DNA of 64,000 nucleotides from an uncultured delta proteobacterium (GCA_963810935.1 CAWEPK010000015.1:1-64000), one strand, 5' to 3'. Shown: positions 19,998 to 40,954, counted from the first letter of the stretch. Numbers and translations: made by a program. Notes: generated by a model not told the origin, from the sequence alone.

Positions 19998-22900
19998 ATG
20001 ATTCGAGCGGTAGTCGATTTCGCCCTAAGCCACAGATGGCTCATGCTCGCTTTCGGCGTTTTCCTGTTCGGTATAGGGGTTGTCCAGTTCCAGCACTTAT
20101 CCATCGAGGCATATCCGGACGTGGCCAACAACTATGCCTGGATCATCACGCAGTGGCCCGGCAGGGCCGCCGAGGAGGTGGAACAGCAGGTAACCATCCC
20201 CATTGAGAACACCATGAACGGCATACCCTACCGCACGTACCTCAGGTCGGTCTCTATTGCCGGGCTGTCCGTCGTCATCATAACGTTCGAGGACAACTCG
20301 GACAATTTCCAGAACCGGCAGAGGGTGCTCGAGCGCATCTCCATGGTGACGCTGCCTTCCAACCTCCAGCCGGCCATCGGCCCGGACTTCAGGCCCGTCG
20401 GGCAAATCTATTTCTTCACGCTGCGGAGCACCAACCCCGCATACGACGCCATGGAGCTGAAGACCCTGATGGACTGGACCCTCGTCAAGCAATTCAAGTC
20501 GGTGCCGAACGTCGTTGACGTCGCGCCCTTCGGCGCGCCGACGCGCGAGTACCAGGTGCGGGTGGACCCCGATAAGCTCGTCTCCTACGGGCTCTCCATC
20601 GGCCAGGTGGAGCAGCAGCTCACGAACAACAACGTGAACGCGGGGGGCAGCTTCATAGAGGCGGGCATGCAGCAGATCAACGTGCGGGTCGTCGGCCTCG
20701 TGCACAACATACAGGACATCGAGGATACGGTCATCACGGCGAAAAACGGCACCCCGGTGCGCGTCAAGGACATCGCCGTAGTGGCGCAGGGCCCCAAGAT
20801 CAGGCTGGGCCAGTTCGGCAGGGCGATCCACCGGGCGGACGGCAAGATCATCGACAACGACGACGTCGCCTCCAGCATCGTGCTCATGCGTAAAGGGGCG
20901 CCTTTCGACGAGACTATCGTCGGTGTCGAGAAAAAGGTCAAGGAGCTGAACAACGGGATACTGCCGCCTGGCGTGAAGGTCGTCCCCTTCAACGACCGTG
21001 GAGACCTCGTCCATTACACGACCCACACGGTGCTCCACAACCTGACGGAAGGCTTCATCCTCGTCACGATCGTCCTCCTCCTCTTTTTGGGGAGCGTCAG
21101 GGGCGCTATCGTCGTCGCTTTGACCATCCCCTTCGCCCTCTTCTTCGCTGCGAGTCTGCCTGCACTTAAGGGGGATACCGGCGAACCTCCTTTCCCTTGG
21201 CGCCCTCGATTTCGGGATGGTCGTGGACGGGGCCATCGTGATGGTGGAGAACATCATCCGCCATATCGGCCACAAGGATCCCCGGCGTGCCGCTTTCGGG
21301 CAGGATCAGGGCCGCGGCGCATGAGGTGCAGAGGCCCGTCTTTTACGCGATCCTCATCATCATCACCGCCTATCTACCCATCTATACGTTACAGAGCGTC
21401 GAGGGGCGCCTCTTCAGGCCGATGGCCCTGACCGTCGGCTTTGCACTTCTGGGCGCGATGATATTCTCCGTAACACTCGCCCCGATACTCTTGAGCTTCC
21501 TCTTCCGCAAAGAGACGGCGGAGTGGAAAAACCCTGTAGTTTCCCGCCTCACGAAGCTCTACCGGTCGTCCCTCACGTGGTCGATACATCACCGCAAGGT
21601 AATGATCGGCGTTGCAGTGCTCACCCTTTGCGGCACCGTATACCTGGTCGAGAGCGGGGTCATCGGCTCGGAGTTCCTCCCCCACCTGGACGAGGGCGCG
21701 ATCTGGGTCAGGGGCACGCTTGCCCCGAGCACCGGCCCCACCGAATCGATCCAGGTGGCGAACCGGACCAGGGTCATCCTCGCCTCTTTCCCTGAGGCAA
21801 CACAGGTAACCAGCCAGGCCGGACGGGACGATTCGGGGCAGGACTTTACGGGATTCTTCAACACGGAGTATTGCGTCAACCTGAAGCCCAAGAAAGAATG
21901 GCGCTCTGTCTTCCACCAGGATAAAGACAAACTGATCTCCGCGATGAACCGGGAGCTTCAAAAAACTCCCGGCGTAATATGGAACTTCTCCCAACCCATC
22001 CAGGACAACATGGAAGAGGCGATGAGCGGCATCAAGGGGCAACTTGCAACGAAGATTTACGGCGACGACCTGCGGGTGCTGGAGGCCAAGGGGCAGGAGA
22101 TCATAAATATCATGCGCAACATCAAGGGGATAAAAGACCTCGGCCTTTTCCGCGTTGTCGGCCAGCCCAACCTCAATTTCGTAGTGGACAGGGCGCAGGC
22201 CGCCCGTTATCCAGATCAACGTCGCCGACATACAGGACGCCGTCCAGACGGCCGTCGGGGGGAACGCACTTACCCAGGTACTCCAGGGCGAGCAGCGGTA
22301 CGACCTCGTCATGCGCTATCTTCCCTCCTACCGCGACACGAGGGAGGCGCTGGAGAAGATCCGGCTCCTCAGCCCTTCCGGTGAAAGGGTCTCCCTGGCA
22401 CAACTTTGCAGGGTGGAGATGCGGGACGGCGCGAACCAGATCTATCGTGAAAGGAACAGGCGCTATATCGCTATCAAATACAGCGTAAGGGGCCGCGACC
22501 TCGGCAGCACGATCGAAGAGGCTATAGAGAAGGTGAAGACAGGTGAAGCTGCCGCAAGGTTATTCCATCAACTGGATGGGTGAATACGAGAGCCTGAAGC
22601 GGGCCGAAGCACGGCTTCTTATCATCGTGCCCGTCACGGTATTCTTTATATTCATGATTATATACGGCGCCTTCGGCTCTGCCAAATGGGCCTGCCTCCA
22701 TATGGTCAACGTAGCGGTTGCGCGCATAGGGGGCCTCCTCGCCCTCCTCGTGACAGGTACCTTTTTCAGCGTCTCCTCAGGGGTGGGGTTCATGGCTCTC
22801 TTCGGATGCTCGGTGCAGACGGGCGTCGTGATGGTGGAGTATATCAATCAGCTCCGGGCAAGGGGATACCCTGTTGTCGAGGCTGCGATAGAGGGGGCGA

Positions 22901-23173
22901 CGCGCCGCCTGAGGCCCATCATGATGACGATGCTCGTTGCGACTCTCGGGCCTTTTGCCTGCGGCCATGTCCCACGCCATAGGGTCCGACTCGCAGCGGC
23001 CTTTCGCCATAGTCATCGTTGGGGGGCTGATCGCCGACCTTTTCATGAGCATCTACCTGTTGCCTACCTTCTACGTATGGTGGGCGCGGCCCACCGATCA
23101 CCTGCCCAAACCGGACGAAGCAAAGGACATAGATGCTGAAGACGAGCGGCGGGAGGGGATAAACGGCGATTAA
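19998..23173 (+). CDS. CusA/CzcA family heavy-metal RND permease (about 5 frameshifts)
   Basis: IEAYPD, EEVEQQVTIPIE, NLLSLGALDFG..VDG..VMVEN, GSEFLPHLDEG, RLRPIMMT, QRPFAIVIVGGL spread over successive frames. Confidence 0.88.
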
Positions 23174-23325
23174 CTAAGTTGTTGTTTTCTCACGGAAGGC
23201 CGTGAAAAGCGAACGGCTTGAGGCTCGGGAGAGGCACCGTGGTTCGTGGTATACTAGATAAAGAAAGCCAGCAGGACGGGCAGAAGGCAGGAGGTAAACG
23301 CCGCGCCGGCCCGTCGGGAGCAGTT

Positions 23326-24726
23326 ATGAACCTGTTTCTGCGCCTGTCGCAGGGAAGCCGTTGGACAATACTTGCAACCGCCGCGGTGCTCGTCGGCGTC
23401 GTCGTTCTCGTCGACTGGAAAAACCCCGTCAACGCATATTTCGGCTTCCTTTACGTATTCCCCATGCTCCTGGTCGGGGCAGTCCTTTCGAGCTGGCAAA
23501 TAGCCTTGATCGCCTTAGGCTGCACCCTCCTGGCCGAGACCTTCGACCCGTTCCCCTTCGTGCCCGCAGAGGCCGGACCGCAGGACATCCTCCTCTTCAT
23601 CGCCCTTGCGGGGATTGGCCTGTTCTCCCGCGAGGCGACCGTCAACCGCAAGCTGGAGGTCGAGAACCGCCTGAAAGTCGAAAAGGAAGCGGCCACGCGG
23701 CGCGAGGCGGAGGAGCAGCTCGCATTTATCATACAGACGAGCCCGCTGGCCATTATCGTAACGGGCGGGAGCGGAGAGATCCTCCTGGCTAACGGGGCGG
23801 CAGGCTACCTCTTCCGCGCTCCGGAGACCGAGCTTTTCGGGCGGAACATTTCTCGCTACATTCCGGCCCTCGGCCTTGTCCCTTCCGCGGAGCATGCGGG
23901 CAAGACTTTCCGCACGGAGATGCAATGTCCCGGAAAACGGGGCAACGGCGAGATATTCATGGCCTCCGTCTTCTTTTCCACGTATAAGACCGCCCTCGGC
24001 CCGCGCCTGGCCGCCCTCGTGGTAGACACCTCGGAGGACCTGCGGGGGCGCGCGGAGTACGGCCTGGAGCAGCTCATGACCGGCTCGCGCATACTCGTCG
24101 GCGCCGTCTTCCACGAGGTGAGGAATGTGTGCAGCGCCATCGCCGTCATGTACGAGAACCTCGAGCGGGGCGGCATTTTCAAGGGAAGCGCGGATTTCGA
24201 AGCGTTGGGCTCGCTGGTTGAAGCACTCAACAGGATCGCCTCAACGGAGCTGCGAAAGAGCACAAGCGGGGCGGCGGCAGAGACGGTTGATCTGGCCTCT
24301 TTTATCGACGAGGCGCGCATCGTTCTCGGGCCTTACTGCGCGGAGTCCGATACAGCCATCGATTGGGAGGCACCCGACGCACTGCCTGCGGTCTGGGCCG
24401 ACAGCCACAGCCTCCTTAACGTGCTCCTTAATCTTGCGAAAAATAGCTGCCGCGCCCTCGAAGGGTCGGACCTCAGGAAGATAAAAGTCTCGGTGACGCC
24501 GCGACGTGAAAAGGTGTCGATCAGGTTTTGTGACTCGGGGCCGGGCATAGCCTCGCCTGAAAAACTCTTCCAGCCACTCCAGCAGGGTGCAGATGCGACG
24601 GGGCTGGGGCTGTTCCTCTCGCGCGCTTTCGTGAGGTCTTTCGGGGGCGACCTCAGGTACGAGCCGGGCTGGGGCGGGTGCTGCTTCGTCATCGACCTTG
24701 CCATAGCGGGCGACGCAGAAGTCTGA
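23326..24726 (+). CDS. membrane-bound PAS sensor histidine kinase
   Basis: N-terminal TMs, PAS, H-box FHEVRN, N-box LLNLAKNS, DSGPG, GLGL. Confidence 0.88.
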   Translation: MNLFLRLSQGSRWTILATAAVLVGVVVLVDWKNPVNAYFGFLYVFPMLLVGAVLSSWQIALIALGCTLLAETFDPFPFVPAEAGPQDILLFIALAGIGLFSREATVNRKLEVENRLKVEKEAATRREAEEQLAFIIQTSPLAIIVTGGSGEILLANGAAGYLFRAPETELFGRNISRYIPALGLVPSAEHAGKTFRTEMQCPGKRGNGEIFMASVFFSTYKTALGPRLAALVVDTSEDLRGRAEYGLEQLMTGSRILVGAVFHEVRNVCSAIAVMYENLERGGIFKGSADFEALGSLVEALNRIASTELRKSTSGAAAETVDLASFIDEARIVLGPYCAESDTAIDWEAPDALPAVWADSHSLLNVLLNLAKNSCRALEGSDLRKIKVSVTPRREKVSIRFCDSGPGIASPEKLFQPLQQGADATGLGLFLSRAFVRSFGGDLRYEPGWGGCCFVIDLAIAGDAEV

Positions 24727-36113: not shown

Positions 36114-36542
36114 TTATTTAACCGGCAGGCAGGCGGGGCAGTAGCCCATGATTTCGAGCGTGTGGCGGACGGGCGTGAAGCGCTCGTGGCGGCATATCTC
36201 GTCCTGGAGCATTTCGAGCGTAGGGGAGTAGACTTCTATTGCCTTTCCGCAGGAAAGGCAGATCAGGTGGTCGTGGTGCGCCTTCCCGATCGCCTTCTCG
36301 TAATGGGCATGTTTCTCCGTCCTCTGGACCTCGACAATGACGCCGTCGTCGATAAGGAGAGGTATCGCCCGGTAAACGGACGCCCTGGACACCCTGGCCC
36401 CTCCGGCCTTGAGCCTGTCATATAGCGATTGCACGTCGAAATGTCCCTTGATCGTATCTATGGCAGCCAGGATCTCCTGCCTCCCCGCGGTCTGCCGCTT
36501 TCCATGGATGGCAGGCGCCTCTTTCGCGTCTTTCTTTCTCAT
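36114..36542 (-). CDS. Fur family metal-sensing repressor
   Basis: SRASVYR HTH, HHDHLICLSCG, C-terminal CPAC. Confidence 0.92.
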   Translation of the reverse strand: MRKKDAKEAPAIHGKRQTAGRQEILAAIDTIKGHFDVQSLYDRLKAGGARVSRASVYRAIPLLIDDGVIVEVQRTEKHAHYEKAIGKAHHDHLICLSCGKAIEVYSPTLEMLQDEICRHERFTPVRHTLEIMGYCPACLPVK

Positions 36543-36578: not shown

Positions 36579-36700
36579 ATTTTACAGGCAAAGGCGGCCT
36601 TTTTCAATAATTTGATAATCAGTCTCATAAAGGTGCAGTTTTTCCTTGACTCATAGGCCGGTATGATATATCCTTACAATGTAACTGAGATACAGTCTCA
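36579..36700. promoter_or_regulatory. divergent promoters with two Fur-type boxes
   Basis: minus TTGAAA-N17-TAAAAT (36579-36607); plus TTGACT-N17-TATCCT (36646-36674); boxes TGATAATCAGTCTCA (36613-36627) and TGAGATACAGTCTCA (36686-36700). Confidence 0.7.
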
Positions 36701-36725
36701 TTAATCAACAGGACCGGCGGGCTTC

Positions 36726-37022
36726 ATGCTAAGGCTAAGACCGATAGACAAAAAACTGCTTTTTCTCTTCTCCGTCTACCTGCTTTTTGCAGTGACGGTG
36801 GTCGCCTTCGACCCGCACGGCGCATTGCCCAGTAAGACATGCACGATCTGCTTCATGGGCATTTCCCTTGCTTCCGCCGTAGGTCAGGCCCATGTGACCT
36901 GCGACGTCTATTTCGACAGGCAATATGTGCAGATGGCAGACGAGATTTGCCGGCTCTACCCGTCGGTACCCCTCTCGGCCATCTCGTACAGGGGACCGCC
37001 CGCCTCCTCCTTCGTTCTTTAA
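36726..37022 (+). CDS. DUF2946/CruR-like leader protein (TM/signal, CxxC, C-terminal RGPP)
   Basis: hydrophobic residues 11-28, CTIC at 39-42, RGPP at 89-92. Confidence 0.7.
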   Translation: MLRLRPIDKKLLFLFSVYLLFAVTVVAFDPHGALPSKTCTICFMGISLASAVGQAHVTCDVYFDRQYVQMADEICRLYPSVPLSAISYRGPPASSFVL

Positions 37023-37125
37023 TCGATTTACGACAAGTCAGGCACGATTACAGTACAGGTAAGGCGAAAGGGCGCCGGACGTCCCGATAGCGCGGCCTGC
37101 GCCCTCTAGAGATGAGGAGCAATCG

Positions 37126-38528
37126 TTGAACCCGATATATTTAATGAGACGCCTGCGCGTTGCGCGCAAAGGCGTCACGACGATAGCATTATTGTTCGTA
37201 TTCGCGATTCTATTTATCGTCACTGCGCCGCGTGCAGCTTACGCGCAGGATACAAAGTCCTCCCTCCCCCCTGGTTCCCCCAGCTCTTAGGCGCACAGGT
37301 AAACGGGGTCTACCAGAACTCCCCTTCCTTCCATAGCCCGTACACGGGAGACAAGAGCTTTATCTTCGATCATAGCTTCAAGCAGCGCGTTACCGATGTC
37401 TACGGCCTCTATTTAGGCTCGCAGATCACCCCCTCGCTCCAGGTCTACGGCGACTTCGAGATGTTCAGGGGGTCGGGCATATCGAACGGTTTCGGCTTGG
37501 GTGGATATACCAATGCAGACGTAATAAGGGCAGGGCCTGCCAATTTAGGCCAGGAGCCCTACCTTGCCCGCCTCTATGCCAGATACGTCATCCCCTTATC
37601 GAATGCCGTGACGGACCCGGTAGAGAGGGGCATGGACCAGATACCGGGTAGCCAGGCTGCGGACCGCATAGAGATAAAGGCAGGCAAGCTCGCCCCTACG
37701 GACGACTTCGACCAGAACCGCTATGCCAATAACGGCCGCACCCAGTTCATGAACTATGACTTCCTCTTCAATACCGCCTGGGACTATGCATCCGATACAA
37801 GGGGATACTCCATAGGCTTCTCCGCCGCCCTTGTCCATCCGGCATGGAGGCTTATCTTAGGCAGCTACCAGGTCCCTACCACAAGAAACGGCATGATCCT
37901 GGACAATGAGATCGCAAGGGCGCGTGGAGACCAGTTGGAGCTAGACATAGCCAGATGGGAGAAAGGACCCGTTGTCCGCCTTTTGGCCTTCAGGAACGAA
38001 GGTAGGATGGGGGACTACAGGGACGCAATAGCCTTAGGTGCATTAACAGGCACGGTACCCGATACTACCATACAAAACATACCCGGAAAGGTGAAGTACG
38101 GCTTCGGCTTAAACATAGAGCAGCCCCTTGCCAATGACGGGGACACGGGCATCTTTGCAAGGTTCGGCTGGGCCAACGGGGATAACTCCAACTGGTCCTA
38201 TACCGAATCCGACAGGCACGCAAGCACAGGCGTCCAGATAAGCGGCAAGAACTGGGGCAGGCAGGAGGACCAGGCAGGCCTGGCCTTCGGCGTCAACGGC
38301 ATCACCTCATCCCACCAGCACTACCTCCAGCAGGGAGGCATAGGCATGCTCGTAGGGGACGGGGCATTGAACTACGGCCTGGAGCAGGTGACGGAAGCCT
38401 ACTACAGGATACAGGTAGGCAGGTACGTGCAGATAAGCCCGGACTTCCAGTACATCTGGAACCCAGCTTACAACAAAGACAGGGGGCCGGTGCAGGTCTA
38501 CGGGATGAGGATGAGGGTGTACTACTAA
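37126..38528 (+). CDS. OprB-family porin, MnoP-like (frameshift at C6 run 37266-37271)
   Basis: GAGGAG SD, signal peptide, FHSPY.G, YLARLY, FDQNRYAN..RTQFMN, AWDYASDTRGYS, GDGALNY, NPAYNKDRGPV; terminal aromatic residue. Confidence 0.85.
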
Positions 38529-38741: not shown

Positions 38742-40837
38742 TCAGGCCCGGCCCGATTCACCCAAAAGACCTAGCATCGCGTCTGCGTCGGCAACCGGCG
38801 TCGCGCAGGCGTTGTTCGAGCAGACATATGCACGGGGTTTGCCGCCTTCGGATTGGAAGTCTTTAAGGAATGGGGCGAGGTCGGCGAGGCGCGGTCCTTC
38901 GGCCCTAGCGCCCTCGGCTGCGACAAGGACAACCGTTTCGGGCAGGAAGCGCGAGCGCAGCGCTTCGATCATGGCGCTGAGGCCTGCCGACGATTCCGGT
39001 CCTGCCAGCACGACCTCGTGTGACGGGCCGAGGGCTAAACTCAGTGCGCAAAGCATCTGCGTGAAACCTGCCGGATACTGCGCCACCCTGCCGGAAAGGG
39101 CCTCGCCGAGCCGGGCGGCCTTGCTTTCCAGGTCCGCATTACCCGTAAGCCTGGCGAGGCGCAGGAGGTTCGTCATAGCAACCGAGTTGCCGGACGGCAC
39201 GGCCCCGTCGTAGGCGTCCTTCTGGCGGAGCGGCAGCGGCTCGCCGTCATCAGCAATGAAAAAGAACCCTTCTTCCGCATCGTCCCAAAAGTGGTCTATC
39301 TGCTCTGCATTGAGCCTGAGTGCTTCCGCTAGGAAGCGCGGGTCAAACGTCGCCTCATAAAGCTCGATGCAGCCCCAGGTGAGAAACGCGTAATCGTCCA
39401 GGTTCGCTCTAATCGACGCCTCCCCGTCGCGGAAGCGGTGCAGGAGCCGCCCGTCCTTGGCCGTCATGCGCTCCGTGATAAACGCGAGCGCCTTCGCAGC
39501 GGCACGGGCATATGCCGCCTCCCCCAGCACTTGAGCGCCCCTTGCGAGGGCGGCGATCATCAGGCCGTTCCAGTCGGCCAGCACTTTGTCGTCCTTATGG
39601 GGATGGACGCGCTTCTCGCGCTCTGCAAACAGCCGCTGCCGCGCCTGCTCGATCGCGGCGGTCCCGCCCTCCGGCGCGTCGCCGCCTTTCAGGTGGAGTA
39701 TGTTGCTCCCTGCATCGCCTTCGCCCCTGGTGTCCCAGTTGCCGTCCGTGCTGACGTTGAAGCGGCGTATGATAAGGCCGGCGGAGGCATCATCGAGGGC
39801 GTCCCTTATCTGCCTTTCCGTCCAGACGTAGAACCTGCCCTCTACGCCTTCGCTGTCCGCGTCTTCGGCGGAATAGAAGCCGCCTTCGGGCGATGTCATA
39901 TCACGTAGCACGTAAGTGAAGACCTCGCGGGCCGTCCTGCCGTATTCGGCCTTGCGCGTCGCCTGGTGCGCCTCCAGGCAAGCAAGGGCGCACATTGCCT
40001 GGTCGTAGAGCATCTTCTCGAAGTGCGGCACGAGCCAGGCCGCATCCGTCGAATATCTGTGGAACCCAAACCCCACGTGGTCGTATATGCCGCCCTGCCG
40101 CATCGCATGAAGCGTCTTCTCTACCATGGCGAGGGCGCGGCCGCTGCGGCGGCGCTTCCAATAGCGCAGCAGGAAACTGATGTTGTGCGCCGTGGGGAAT
40201 TTGGCGCTTCGGTCCGAAAGCCGCCGAAGCGCTCGTCGAAGCGTTCCGAAAGGACGTCGAAAGCCGCGTCGAGGGTCTTTTCGGAGAGGCCGGCAGGCGG
40301 GGGCGTCTCCATCAACTGCCTCAAGTTCTCCACGTGCTTCCGGCCGGAAGCGAGCAGCTCTTCGCGCCGGTTGCGCCAAAGCTCCTTGACGCGCGGCACG
40401 ATATCGACGAGGCCCGGCCTGCCGTACCTGCCCTCTTTCGGGATATACGTCGCCGCGTAGAACGGTGTCTTGTCCGGCGCGAGCAGGATGGTGAGGGGCC
40501 ATCCGCCGCTTCCCGTGAGCATCTGGCAGACCGCCATGTAGACGTTGTCGATGTCGGGCCGCTCCTCCCGGTCCACCTTGATGCAGATAAAGGCGTCATT
40601 CAGCAGTGCCGCCGCCTGCCCGTCCTCGAAAGACTCCCGCTCCATCACGTGGCACCAGTGGCACGTCGAATAGCCTATGGAGAGGAAAACAGGCTTGTCC
40701 TCGGCAGCCGCAGCCGCAAACGCCTCGTCGCCCCACGGCCGCCAATCGACCGGATTGCCCGCGTGCTGCAAAAGATAAGGGCTTTTCTCGTATTGAAGCC
40801 TGTTGCGGCCGGATCCGCTGGTCCGTTGATCGTCCAT
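38742..40837 (-). CDS. thioredoxin-domain DUF255 protein (YyaL/SSP411 family), frameshift near 40205
   Basis: [52 protein letters not shown]. Confidence 0.92.
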
Positions 40838-40954
40838 ACGCTCTTTCCGTTTCCGATAATCTATATCTTGCGCGGCACATCGGCCACACCTGGGTATTCT
40901 GGCGAGGGGAGAAAAGATATGCATGTGAAGGGAAAAATGAGCGATCCCCCAATT

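Follow-up and report, generated by a model that had tools for sequence, protein, structure and literature searches.

Genes and motifs at the leader–porin locus

A stretch of 64,000 nucleotides from an uncultured delta proteobacterium (GCA_963810935.1 CAWEPK010000015.1:1-64000; hereafter the window) carries a small leader gene, which is followed by an OprB-family porin gene and preceded, in divergent orientation, by a gene for a Fur-family repressor. The leader is an open reading frame (ORF) of 98 amino acids of the CruR/CutF type (36726..37022, plus strand), supported by homologue searches, alignment and dN/dS analysis. The repressor gene occupies 36114..36542 on the minus strand (PF01475, 93 bits), and the porin runs from 37126 to 38528 on the plus strand (PF04966, 107 bits against a cut-off of 22.9). 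An earlier note on this DNA had read the locus as a Fur-controlled arrest peptide that gates a MnoP-like porin through an anti-Shine–Dalgarno sequence. When all readings considered below are combined, some form of arrest-based control by this leader appears highly probable. Genomes and loci of relatives are labelled Gxxx and Lxxx, respectively; G000 is the genome of the window, and C3, C7, C8 and C17 are contigs of G000.

The leader begins with a signal-peptide-like segment (36726..36806, plus strand), which consists of a basic n-region, a hydrophobic helix and a V-V-A sequence at the putative cleavage site before F28-D-P-H31. This segment was judged from hydropathy (peak 2.5) and residue pattern; small residues are found at positions −3 and −1 in 15 of 25 homologues. 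With D29 and H31, a CxxC motif (C39-T-I-C42, 36840..36851) makes up a putative metal site. R89, the first residue of the candidate arrest motif RGPP (36990..37001), is separated from C42 by 46 residues, and the motif is followed by a C/U-rich tail (37002..37022) that contains CTCCTC (37004–37009) and sits at the centre of a bubble of C over G. These motifs lie where the earlier note had placed them, and the same is true of the porin Shine–Dalgarno sequence (SD) GAGGAG (37114–37119) and of the arms of a 7-bp hairpin in the spacer (AGGGCGC 37069–37075 and GCGCCCT 37099–37105). The AlphaFold model of the leader contains a helix (residues 6–27) and is otherwise mostly unpacked and of low confidence (predicted template-modelling score, pTM, 0.32).

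Conservation of the leader

Homologue searches returned five close proteins and 23 representatives at E ≤ 0.001. In an alignment of 25 sequences, from which the near-duplicate P0001, the truncated P0023 and the long P0027 and P0028 were excluded, mean column identity is 29%. D29, C39, L48, R89 and P92 are invariant in this alignment, and H31, C42, S50, G90 and P91 are at least 90% conserved. The distance between CxxC and RGPP, whose conservation the earlier note had proposed as a check, is 46 residues in 21 of the 23 proteins that could be scored, 45 in one and 47 in one. In most close loci RGPP is placed six to seven codons ahead of the stop codon. The leader of G002 is 96% identical to that of the window, and leaders that precede the porin or efflux pumps are about 70–80% identical to one another. 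Purifying selection is evident in 11 pairs (dN/dS 0.06–0.39), including the porin-linked leaders taken alone (0.07 and 0.11). By these comparative measures, the leader is a real, selected gene.

Across the phylum, the leader profile matched in at least four of 401 genomes at E ≤ 1e-6, with only 12 candidates scored per genome. Close homologues carry names pointing to Syntrophorhabdales, and more than half of the sequence words of the region were found in four soil metagenome runs from one study. Runs X5–X7 contain no more than small shares, and the RNA run X7 does not extend over the leader.

Relation to CruR and CutF

The leader resembles CruR (Bp2923) of Bordetella pertussis, a member of DUF2946 (PF11162), in that it is the first gene of a metal operon, carries an export signal, a CxxC motif and a C-terminal RxPP, is separated from the next gene by a long spacer and displays a C>G bubble across its 3′ end. 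The distance from CxxC to the arrest motif is 45 residues in CruR, varies by no more than one or two across over 2000 DUF2946 proteins and, when lengthened by +5, abolishes regulation (PMC9426467); the 46 residues of the window leader fall inside this range. CruR arrests with two prolines occupying the P and A sites (PMC12992588). Unlike CruR, the leader carries RGPP instead of RAPP, is 98 residues long, has a Fur-family box upstream and precedes an OprB porin or CzcB/CzcA efflux genes in a context that points to iron, whereas CruR precedes a TonB receptor in a copper context. RGPP is the strongest and most robust of the RAPP-like arrest cores and is strongly avoided in proteomes (PMC12992588).

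Similar to CutF (PMC9973294), the leader has a Sec-type signal, a Cys motif, a proline-rich C-terminus and a predicted stem in the spacer that would hide the ribosome-binding site (RBS). The features by which CutF-like proteins were recognised in that work, namely a Sec-type signal, fewer than 150 residues, PP within the last 15 residues and a same-strand downstream gene within 1 kb, are all present. CutF-like genes most often lie upstream of resistance–nodulation–division (RND) efflux genes (PMC9973294), as do 12 of the 16 close homologues here. The two differ in the Cys motif (CxxC here, CxxxC in CutF) and in the proline motif (RGPP, of the EF-P-refractory class, versus PPP).

None of the Pfam and NCBIfam families was matched by the window leader, and three of the 25 homologues give weak PF11162 matches (13.4–18 bits) under the cut-off of 23.7 bits. 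Among the neighbours of the leader in the ESM Atlas is a cluster (0.94) whose automatic name is DUF2946, which is a lead only. By its anatomy the leader is CruR/CutF-like, but it is not a formal DUF2946 member, because the PF11162 cut-off is not reached despite the shared motifs and spacing. The earlier assignment to this kind of arrest leader agrees with the motifs, the 46-residue spacing and their conservation.

Genes downstream of the leader family

There are 16 distinct close leader loci. In all of them the leader is the first gene and precedes porin, CzcB/CzcA-type or ferrosome-type genes across spacers of 100–360 nt. The porin is the target in three loci (the window, G002 and L029), RND efflux genes in 12 and a ferrosome-type cluster in one (G478). 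The first efflux gene is an RND adaptor or a CzcA-type permease; in L032 and L036 the contig ends inside the adaptor, and all four CzcA-type permeases tested exceed the TIGR00914 cut-off. The cluster in G478 encodes a P1B ATPase with DYSCA and HNxxT, the signature of FezB (10.1101/2020.01.10.902569). Headed by the RGPP leader, this cluster (L082, 8437–14258) includes small proteins with GxxxG, a protein resembling HMA and a pair of P1B ATPases; it is the first ATPase that has the FezB signature.

The three leader-linked porins fall into one well-supported clade of the porin tree, together with G001 and the other copies from G000. In L029, the leader cassette occupies the position where G000:C8 has a different leader. 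Given this distribution and the 12 efflux loci, the link between leader and porin appears secondary: the cassette, comprising fur, box, leader and RBS, in most cases drives CzcB/CzcA efflux, and its union with the porin took place within one genus-level clade. The porin-specific design proposed earlier is not supported, given that heavy-metal efflux genes follow 12 of the 16 close homologues.

RAPP leaders that are less closely related are followed by genes for other proteins of the outer membrane. One of these genes, on G000:C7, is TonB-receptor-like, although an NCBIfam search at E 1e-40 gave no confirmation. This second leader of the kind in G000 (L073/L100, G000:C7:140487-140882, minus strand) carries HHH, CxxC and RAPP; a Fur-family gene and a ZnuABC-like operon are located about 5 kb away.

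The Fur paralogue and its boxes

The divergent repressor belongs to a patchily distributed paralogue clade, found in nine of 96 genomes of the order; a strong leader match is present in six of these nine as well. The region between the repressor and the leader contains two boxes, each matching 12 of 14 positions of the consensus WTGAGAC-N3-GTCTCAW, which was derived from homologous loci. Box 1 (TTGATAATCAGTCTCAT, 36612..36628) probably serves autoregulation of fur. Box 2 (CTGAGATACAGTCTCAT, 36685..36701) begins 41 nt before the leader start and lies just 3′ of the −10 element of a sigma-70-like promoter candidate, TTGACT-17-TATCCT (36646..36674, plus strand), which scores 9/12 in a consensus scan and alone is not above shuffle expectation. 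Two boxes of this quality did not occur in any of 5000 shuffles of the intergenic region.

A box is found at −37 to −47 before the leader in L036 (14/14), L063 (13/14), L037 (11/14) and L030 (10/14) and farther upstream in L032 and L033, and none was found before the leaders of G014, G008 and G019. G002 and L029 have the leader and are missing both the adjacent fur and the box. In G017, G087 and L032 a gene of the Fur clade and the leader are direct, divergent neighbours, and in G014 and G007 the gene is divergent from feoAB, with the same box (TGAGAC-N3-GTCTCA). The exact box pattern occurs in six of the 96 genomes against five for a reversed control, so the number of genomes is not evidence and only the positions are informative; five of seven exact sites lie at fur, leader or feoAB promoters, and two look like chance. 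A genome-wide box scan of G000 revealed no convincing additional regulon members. Fur-family control, as the earlier note had it, is supported by the divergent PF01475 gene and the two conserved boxes.

The paralogue scores below all NCBIfam equivalog cut-offs. Its best match in the Protein Data Bank is 3MWM, which we take to be Zur, and its YE and HHDH pattern follows 5FD5, without the cysteines of 3MWM; these YE and HHDH residues are presumably metal ligands. The context favours iron over manganese because the same Fur clade and box precede feoAB in G014 and G007, and the manganese response suggested earlier finds no counterpart in this feoAB regulon context.

Predicted pairing between the leader tail and the porin RBS

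The porin SD and its TTG start codon at 37126 (37114..37128, plus strand) are separated by 6 nt, and the arrangement GGAG...TCGTTGAAC is retained in G002 and L029. Two overlapping hairpins are predicted upstream of the start. A local hairpin, CCUC-N7-GAGG (37103..37117, plus strand), would hide the SD in all three porin loci (−5.4, −2.5 and −4.4 kcal/mol); one of its pairs is C-G in the window and U-A in G002, which amounts to a single compensatory event. The 7-bp hairpin (37069..37105, plus strand) is a candidate anti-anti-SD, since its 3′ arm overlaps the 5′ arm of the local hairpin. In the predicted fold, AGGCG (37062..37066, plus strand) is a rival partner of the RGPP codons and the tail. 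A helix between stop codon and start codon (37018–28 with 37121–30) seemed to be conserved among the three porin loci, but its strength does not exceed that in control pairs (−6.9 against a control mean of −6.6 kcal/mol), and it was dropped. No RNA family was found by Rfam at the gathering threshold in the leader or spacer of 20 loci.

Pairing between SD and tail was assessed in 56 control gene pairs and in the 12 loci whose start is clear; L041, L043, L045 and L048 were excluded because their spacers are long or ambiguous. The predicted probability of pairing between SD and leader tail exceeds 0.5 in nine of the 12 loci as opposed to three of the 56 controls, with long tail:SD helices in L030, L031, L077 and L042. 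Masking of the tail lowers the cost of opening the RBS by at least 2 kcal/mol in five of 12 loci (7/56 controls). The tails are also biased at four-fold degenerate sites, of which 58/70 are pyrimidines compared with 298/493 in the leader bodies; U is enriched (27/70 versus 98/493), C is little changed (31/70 versus 200/493) and G is depleted. The leader of L063 (G087) ends at an early TAG that leaves a tail of just two residues, yet the pyrimidine tract that follows is retained and predicted to pair with the SD, which hints at selection at the RNA level.

A proposed two-layer switch and its alternatives

The explanation that we prefer, to which we give close to, though a little short of, an even chance, is a metal-starvation switch with two layers, in which Fur-type repression is combined with an RBS switch that is controlled by arrest at RGPP and keeps the porin on. 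In the first layer, suggested by the boxes and synteny, the Fur paralogue, most likely loaded with Fe(II), would repress the leader–porin promoter via the box at 36685–36701, and iron shortage would lift the repression. In the second layer, by analogy with CruR, the ribosome would arrest at RGPP, Pro91 occupying the P site, and cover the C/U-rich RGPP codons and tail, which would keep these from pairing with the SD or the intergenic region. This would allow the 7-bp hairpin to hold the local anti-SD (37103–06) and the porin to be translated. The site formed by D29, H31 and CxxC, which would have just emerged from the tunnel or translocon 46 residues upstream, would bind metal; metal-driven folding or export would pull the chain, the ribosome would finish translation and the SD would become hidden. 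The sequences themselves show the anatomy of the locus, its conservation, spacing and synteny and the pyrimidine bias of the tails; the arrest, its release by metal, the RNA switch and the identity of the metal are inferred. In favour of the switch are the conserved motifs and their spacing, the tail:SD pairing predicted across the family, the tails rich in U and poor in G at third positions, the Fur clade and box before feoAB in G014 and G007, the absence of both adjacent fur and box in G002 and L029, and the homologue at the head of a cluster with a FezB-signature ATPase.

The helix between CTCCTC and GAGGAG, which the earlier note had made the main gate, is a minor predicted fold in the window, with a pairing probability of 0.00–0.39 depending on the folding window and an energy 0.6–2.1 kcal/mol above the ensemble, and the region 36980–37170, which takes in the stretch that the earlier note had suggested folding, folds no better than shuffles (z −0.14). 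Several observations weigh against the two-layer switch. Opening the RBS in the window costs 3.8–4.6 kcal/mol with the tail free and 7.0 with the tail masked, because CCUC (37103–06) pairs with the SD, so that activation by stalling is not reproduced. In the masked state the SD-hiding hairpin differs from the 7-bp hairpin by only about 1 kcal/mol; activation by this indirect route may be possible in the window, and for G002 direct activation is predicted. The idea that a stalled ribosome masks an anti-SD and turns the porin on is predicted as a trend across the family but not at the window locus itself. Tail:SD pairing is missing in three of the 12 loci (the window, L033 and L037), synonymous recoding keeps much of the tail pairing (null means 0.14–0.80, combined p 0.06) and covariation between each tail and its own SD compared with other SDs, another check proposed earlier, is not significant (p 0.15); the loci are related, which means that such p values overstate the significance. 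The iron link is weakened by feoAB of G000, which has no such box (best 9/14), and by the sequence of the paralogue, which alone does not separate Fur, Mur and Zur here. Efflux pumps that are switched off on metal binding are counter-intuitive unless the ligand is iron.

As regards that ligand, Fe(II) is plausible at somewhat less than an even chance, and Co, Ni, Zn and Mn taken together deserve the same weight; Cu(I) is less probable, and a leader that binds no metal or responds to redox state is improbable. The efflux targets would fit a switch turned off by release most easily if the ligand were iron and the pumps purged competing metals during iron starvation. A more far-reaching form of this idea, which we hold only tentatively and consider doubtful, is an iron-responsive branch of the CruR/CutF leaders, where the nascent chain would read Fe(II) at the ribosome or translocon exit and the Fur paralogue would read cytoplasmic iron. 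What the portable cassette would then turn on is a porin, a cluster of the ferrosome type or, to rid the iron-starved cell of competing metals, a heavy-metal efflux pump.

The alternative that survives best retains the arrest peptide and replaces the RBS switch with Rho-dependent termination: the stalled ribosome would cover a C-rich rut site over and around the RGPP codons, release would lead to termination in the 103-nt spacer, and the complementarity to the SD would be a by-product of C/U-richness. This is the output of CruR (PMC9426467). A C>G bubble is centred on RGPP in 15/15 loci (mean C−G of +11.7 per 60 nt), positions 36960–37019 contain 27 C, 13 G and 20 YC dinucleotides, the genome has a rho gene, the spacers measure 100–360 nt, and the lack of significant tail–SD covariation suits this mechanism. 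However, the bubble is partly forced by the Pro-Pro codons, the synonymous bias of the tails is toward U and not C, and long tail:SD helices are predicted in four loci. We regard Rho termination as a real but distinctly minor possibility.

Less probable, and unlikely overall, is a switch of opposite polarity at the window. Here, the free tail would pair with AGGCG/AGGGCG and leave the RBS more open, the stall would close CCUC:GAGG and release would turn the gene on; or else metal would prolong the stall, as in CutF of Rhodobacter capsulatus, which stalls on Cu binding and is turned on by metal (10.1101/2025.02.05.636593), making the gene metal-induced. The ViennaRNA prediction for the window, a shift of −3.2 kcal/mol on masking, has this sign, and induction by metal suits the efflux targets in 12 of the 16 loci. 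Yet the 96%-identical leader of G002 gives a shift of +2.8 in the direction of activation by stalling and L029 a weak one of +0.8, and chance alone gives a shift of at least −2 kcal/mol in eight of the 56 control pairs.

There is a still smaller chance that the leader is a passenger that arrived from an efflux locus with a Fur promoter, or a monitor of Sec export, and that the porin is in effect controlled by Fur only. The restriction of the porin link to three of 16 loci and one porin-tree clade, the poor conservation of spacer sequences and the unclear switch predicted at the window would be expected of a passenger, but not the low dN/dS of the porin-linked leaders (0.07 and 0.11), the retained CxxC and H31, or the persistence of the leader in G002 and L029 though the adjacent fur and box are missing. 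Finally, the ORF is very unlikely to be a small periplasmic metal-binding protein that acts in trans with an incidental RGPP, a role that its signal peptide and CxxC would allow and for which CzcI, which precedes czcCBA and has no proline motif (PMC9973294), is the precedent, given that RGPP is strongly avoided in proteomes (PMC12992588) and yet near-invariant here, that it keeps its distance from CxxC despite a freely varying linker, and that the protein model is mostly unpacked.

Published leaders, porins and the place of this family

The preferred two-layer switch would extend a known principle. In the source data of PMC12992588 (Fig. 4B), ‘carbohydrate porin’ follows 54 RAPP leaders and 5 AAPP leaders (42-fold, adjusted p 2e-29), and CusA/CzcA follows 50 versus 7, many of the leaders being of the His/CxxC/RAPP kind; the word ‘porin’ is absent from the main text. 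Similar to the window leader, the porin-upstream leaders have a signal, His, often CxxC, and RAPP at the C-terminus, with a porin of about 450–470 codons directly 3′; unlike it, they appear in tables only, with no Fur link, metal or mechanism stated in the portion of that paper available. The RGPP list of the same work may include the family of the window. With carbohydrate porins an enriched downstream class of RAPP leaders, the novelty previously seen in a porin instead of a TonB receptor is lost. The three readable supplementary files of PMC9973294 do not contain the word ‘porin’.

A Fur-boxed OprB porin before feoAB was predicted in Geobacter sulfurreducens (PMC545781). Like the porin here, it is a delta-proteobacterial OprB protein (PF04966), for which repression by Fur and a role in Fe(II) uptake were predicted; unlike here, its box is WTGAAAATNATTTTCAW as opposed to WTGAGAC-N3-GTCTCAW, and no leader peptide is described in the available part of that report. 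A Fur-boxed or iron-linked leader of the CruR/CutF kind was not found in the literature searched, in which subscription journals are largely uncovered.

The general design, including a leader before a porin, is already on record, and this family is a new branch of that principle; since the design has been published, only a demonstration of iron sensing would make the gain more than incremental. Two features set the family apart: it is coupled to a Fur paralogue of its own that probably senses iron, and the one cassette is reused ahead of a porin, a ferrosome-type cluster and efflux pumps. CruR and CutF, the two leaders of the kind that have been characterised, sense copper with opposite polarity and different outputs. 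With similar leaders before a porin or efflux pumps under one Fur-type box, the present family is a natural experiment on the rewiring of one sensor peptide via the mRNA spacer, and it bears on the question of sensing by such peptides beyond copper.

The porin and its reading frame

The predicted barrel of the porin best matches OprB (4GEY; E 8e-16, TM 0.66, 16% identity). Among 120 listed homologues, eight (57–64% identity) carry the JGI label ‘high affinity Mn2+ porin’, and the likeness to MnoP (blr0095 of Bradyrhizobium japonicum, mentioned in PMC6011978) is confined to this OprB-type label. Homologues are found behind a cobalamin riboswitch (L008; L023, with cbiM), behind a micro-ORF beginning MEDDPGG, a candidate Mg leader, and in feoB and RND operon contexts. 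G000 has three copies, 87–94% identical, which lie under the RGPP/Fur leader (window), the MEDDPGG leader (L018, C8) and the cobalamin riboswitch with cbiM (L023, C7). The identity between the window and C8 copies varies from 81 to 100% across 150-nt windows, which suggests gene conversion. Because one porin sits under three different metal-sensing leaders, its contexts suggest a general divalent-metal channel as a better fit than a Mn-specific one. Of the MnoP-like OprB porin that had been proposed, the PF04966/OprB fold and the family label stand, while Mn specificity is not indicated.

In the assembled sequence, the frame opened by TTG 37126 covers a signal peptide before it ends at about 37288, and the barrel lies in a different frame; the break is at a run of six C (37266–37271). 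This frameshift is probably a homopolymer assembly error, because one contig per DNA run (3/3) carries an extra C at the run and the assembled form is seen in none, although read contigs at that depth may derive from relatives or paralogues, and because the C8 paralogue and the L029 porin are in frame. The contig from run X2 spans the leader into the porin with 24 differences. The porin of the sister genome G002 has the same break, which speaks against such an error, but its gene is also broken at a second place. A true pseudogene or phase variation was considered and is made unlikely by the extra C in the read contigs. Frameshifts divide further genes of the window as well, which fits errors in long-read assembly.

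Further observations

Two such split genes or operons in the window are a thioredoxin-domain gene (38742–40924), which we take to be YyaL-like, and a CzcA-type permease operon without an RGPP leader (19998–24726). In G004 (L050, 7569–10140), two identical insertion-element genes lie between fur and a leader–czcBA-type operon, and a porin is found downstream of fur on the opposite side.

The MEDDPGG micro-ORF (25–28 residues) and its SD are conserved before the porin in six loci and before mgtA in G000:C8 and G012. It occurs in L018 (G000:C8:32434, plus strand), G000:C8:38173 (minus strand), L002, L003, L005, L006, L009, L010 and L014. The downstream mgtA exceeds the TIGR01524 cut-off, and Rfam gave no match for the micro-ORF. 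Its acidic and proline-containing start presumably resembles that of MgtL, and the micro-ORF is a candidate family of Mg-sensing leaders. Small signal-bearing or hydrophobic ORFs that end in YRGPP and have no CxxC are present at G000:C3 (about 145870–146157) and C17 (39012–39353), the former upstream of a Gly/His/Tyr-rich secreted protein.

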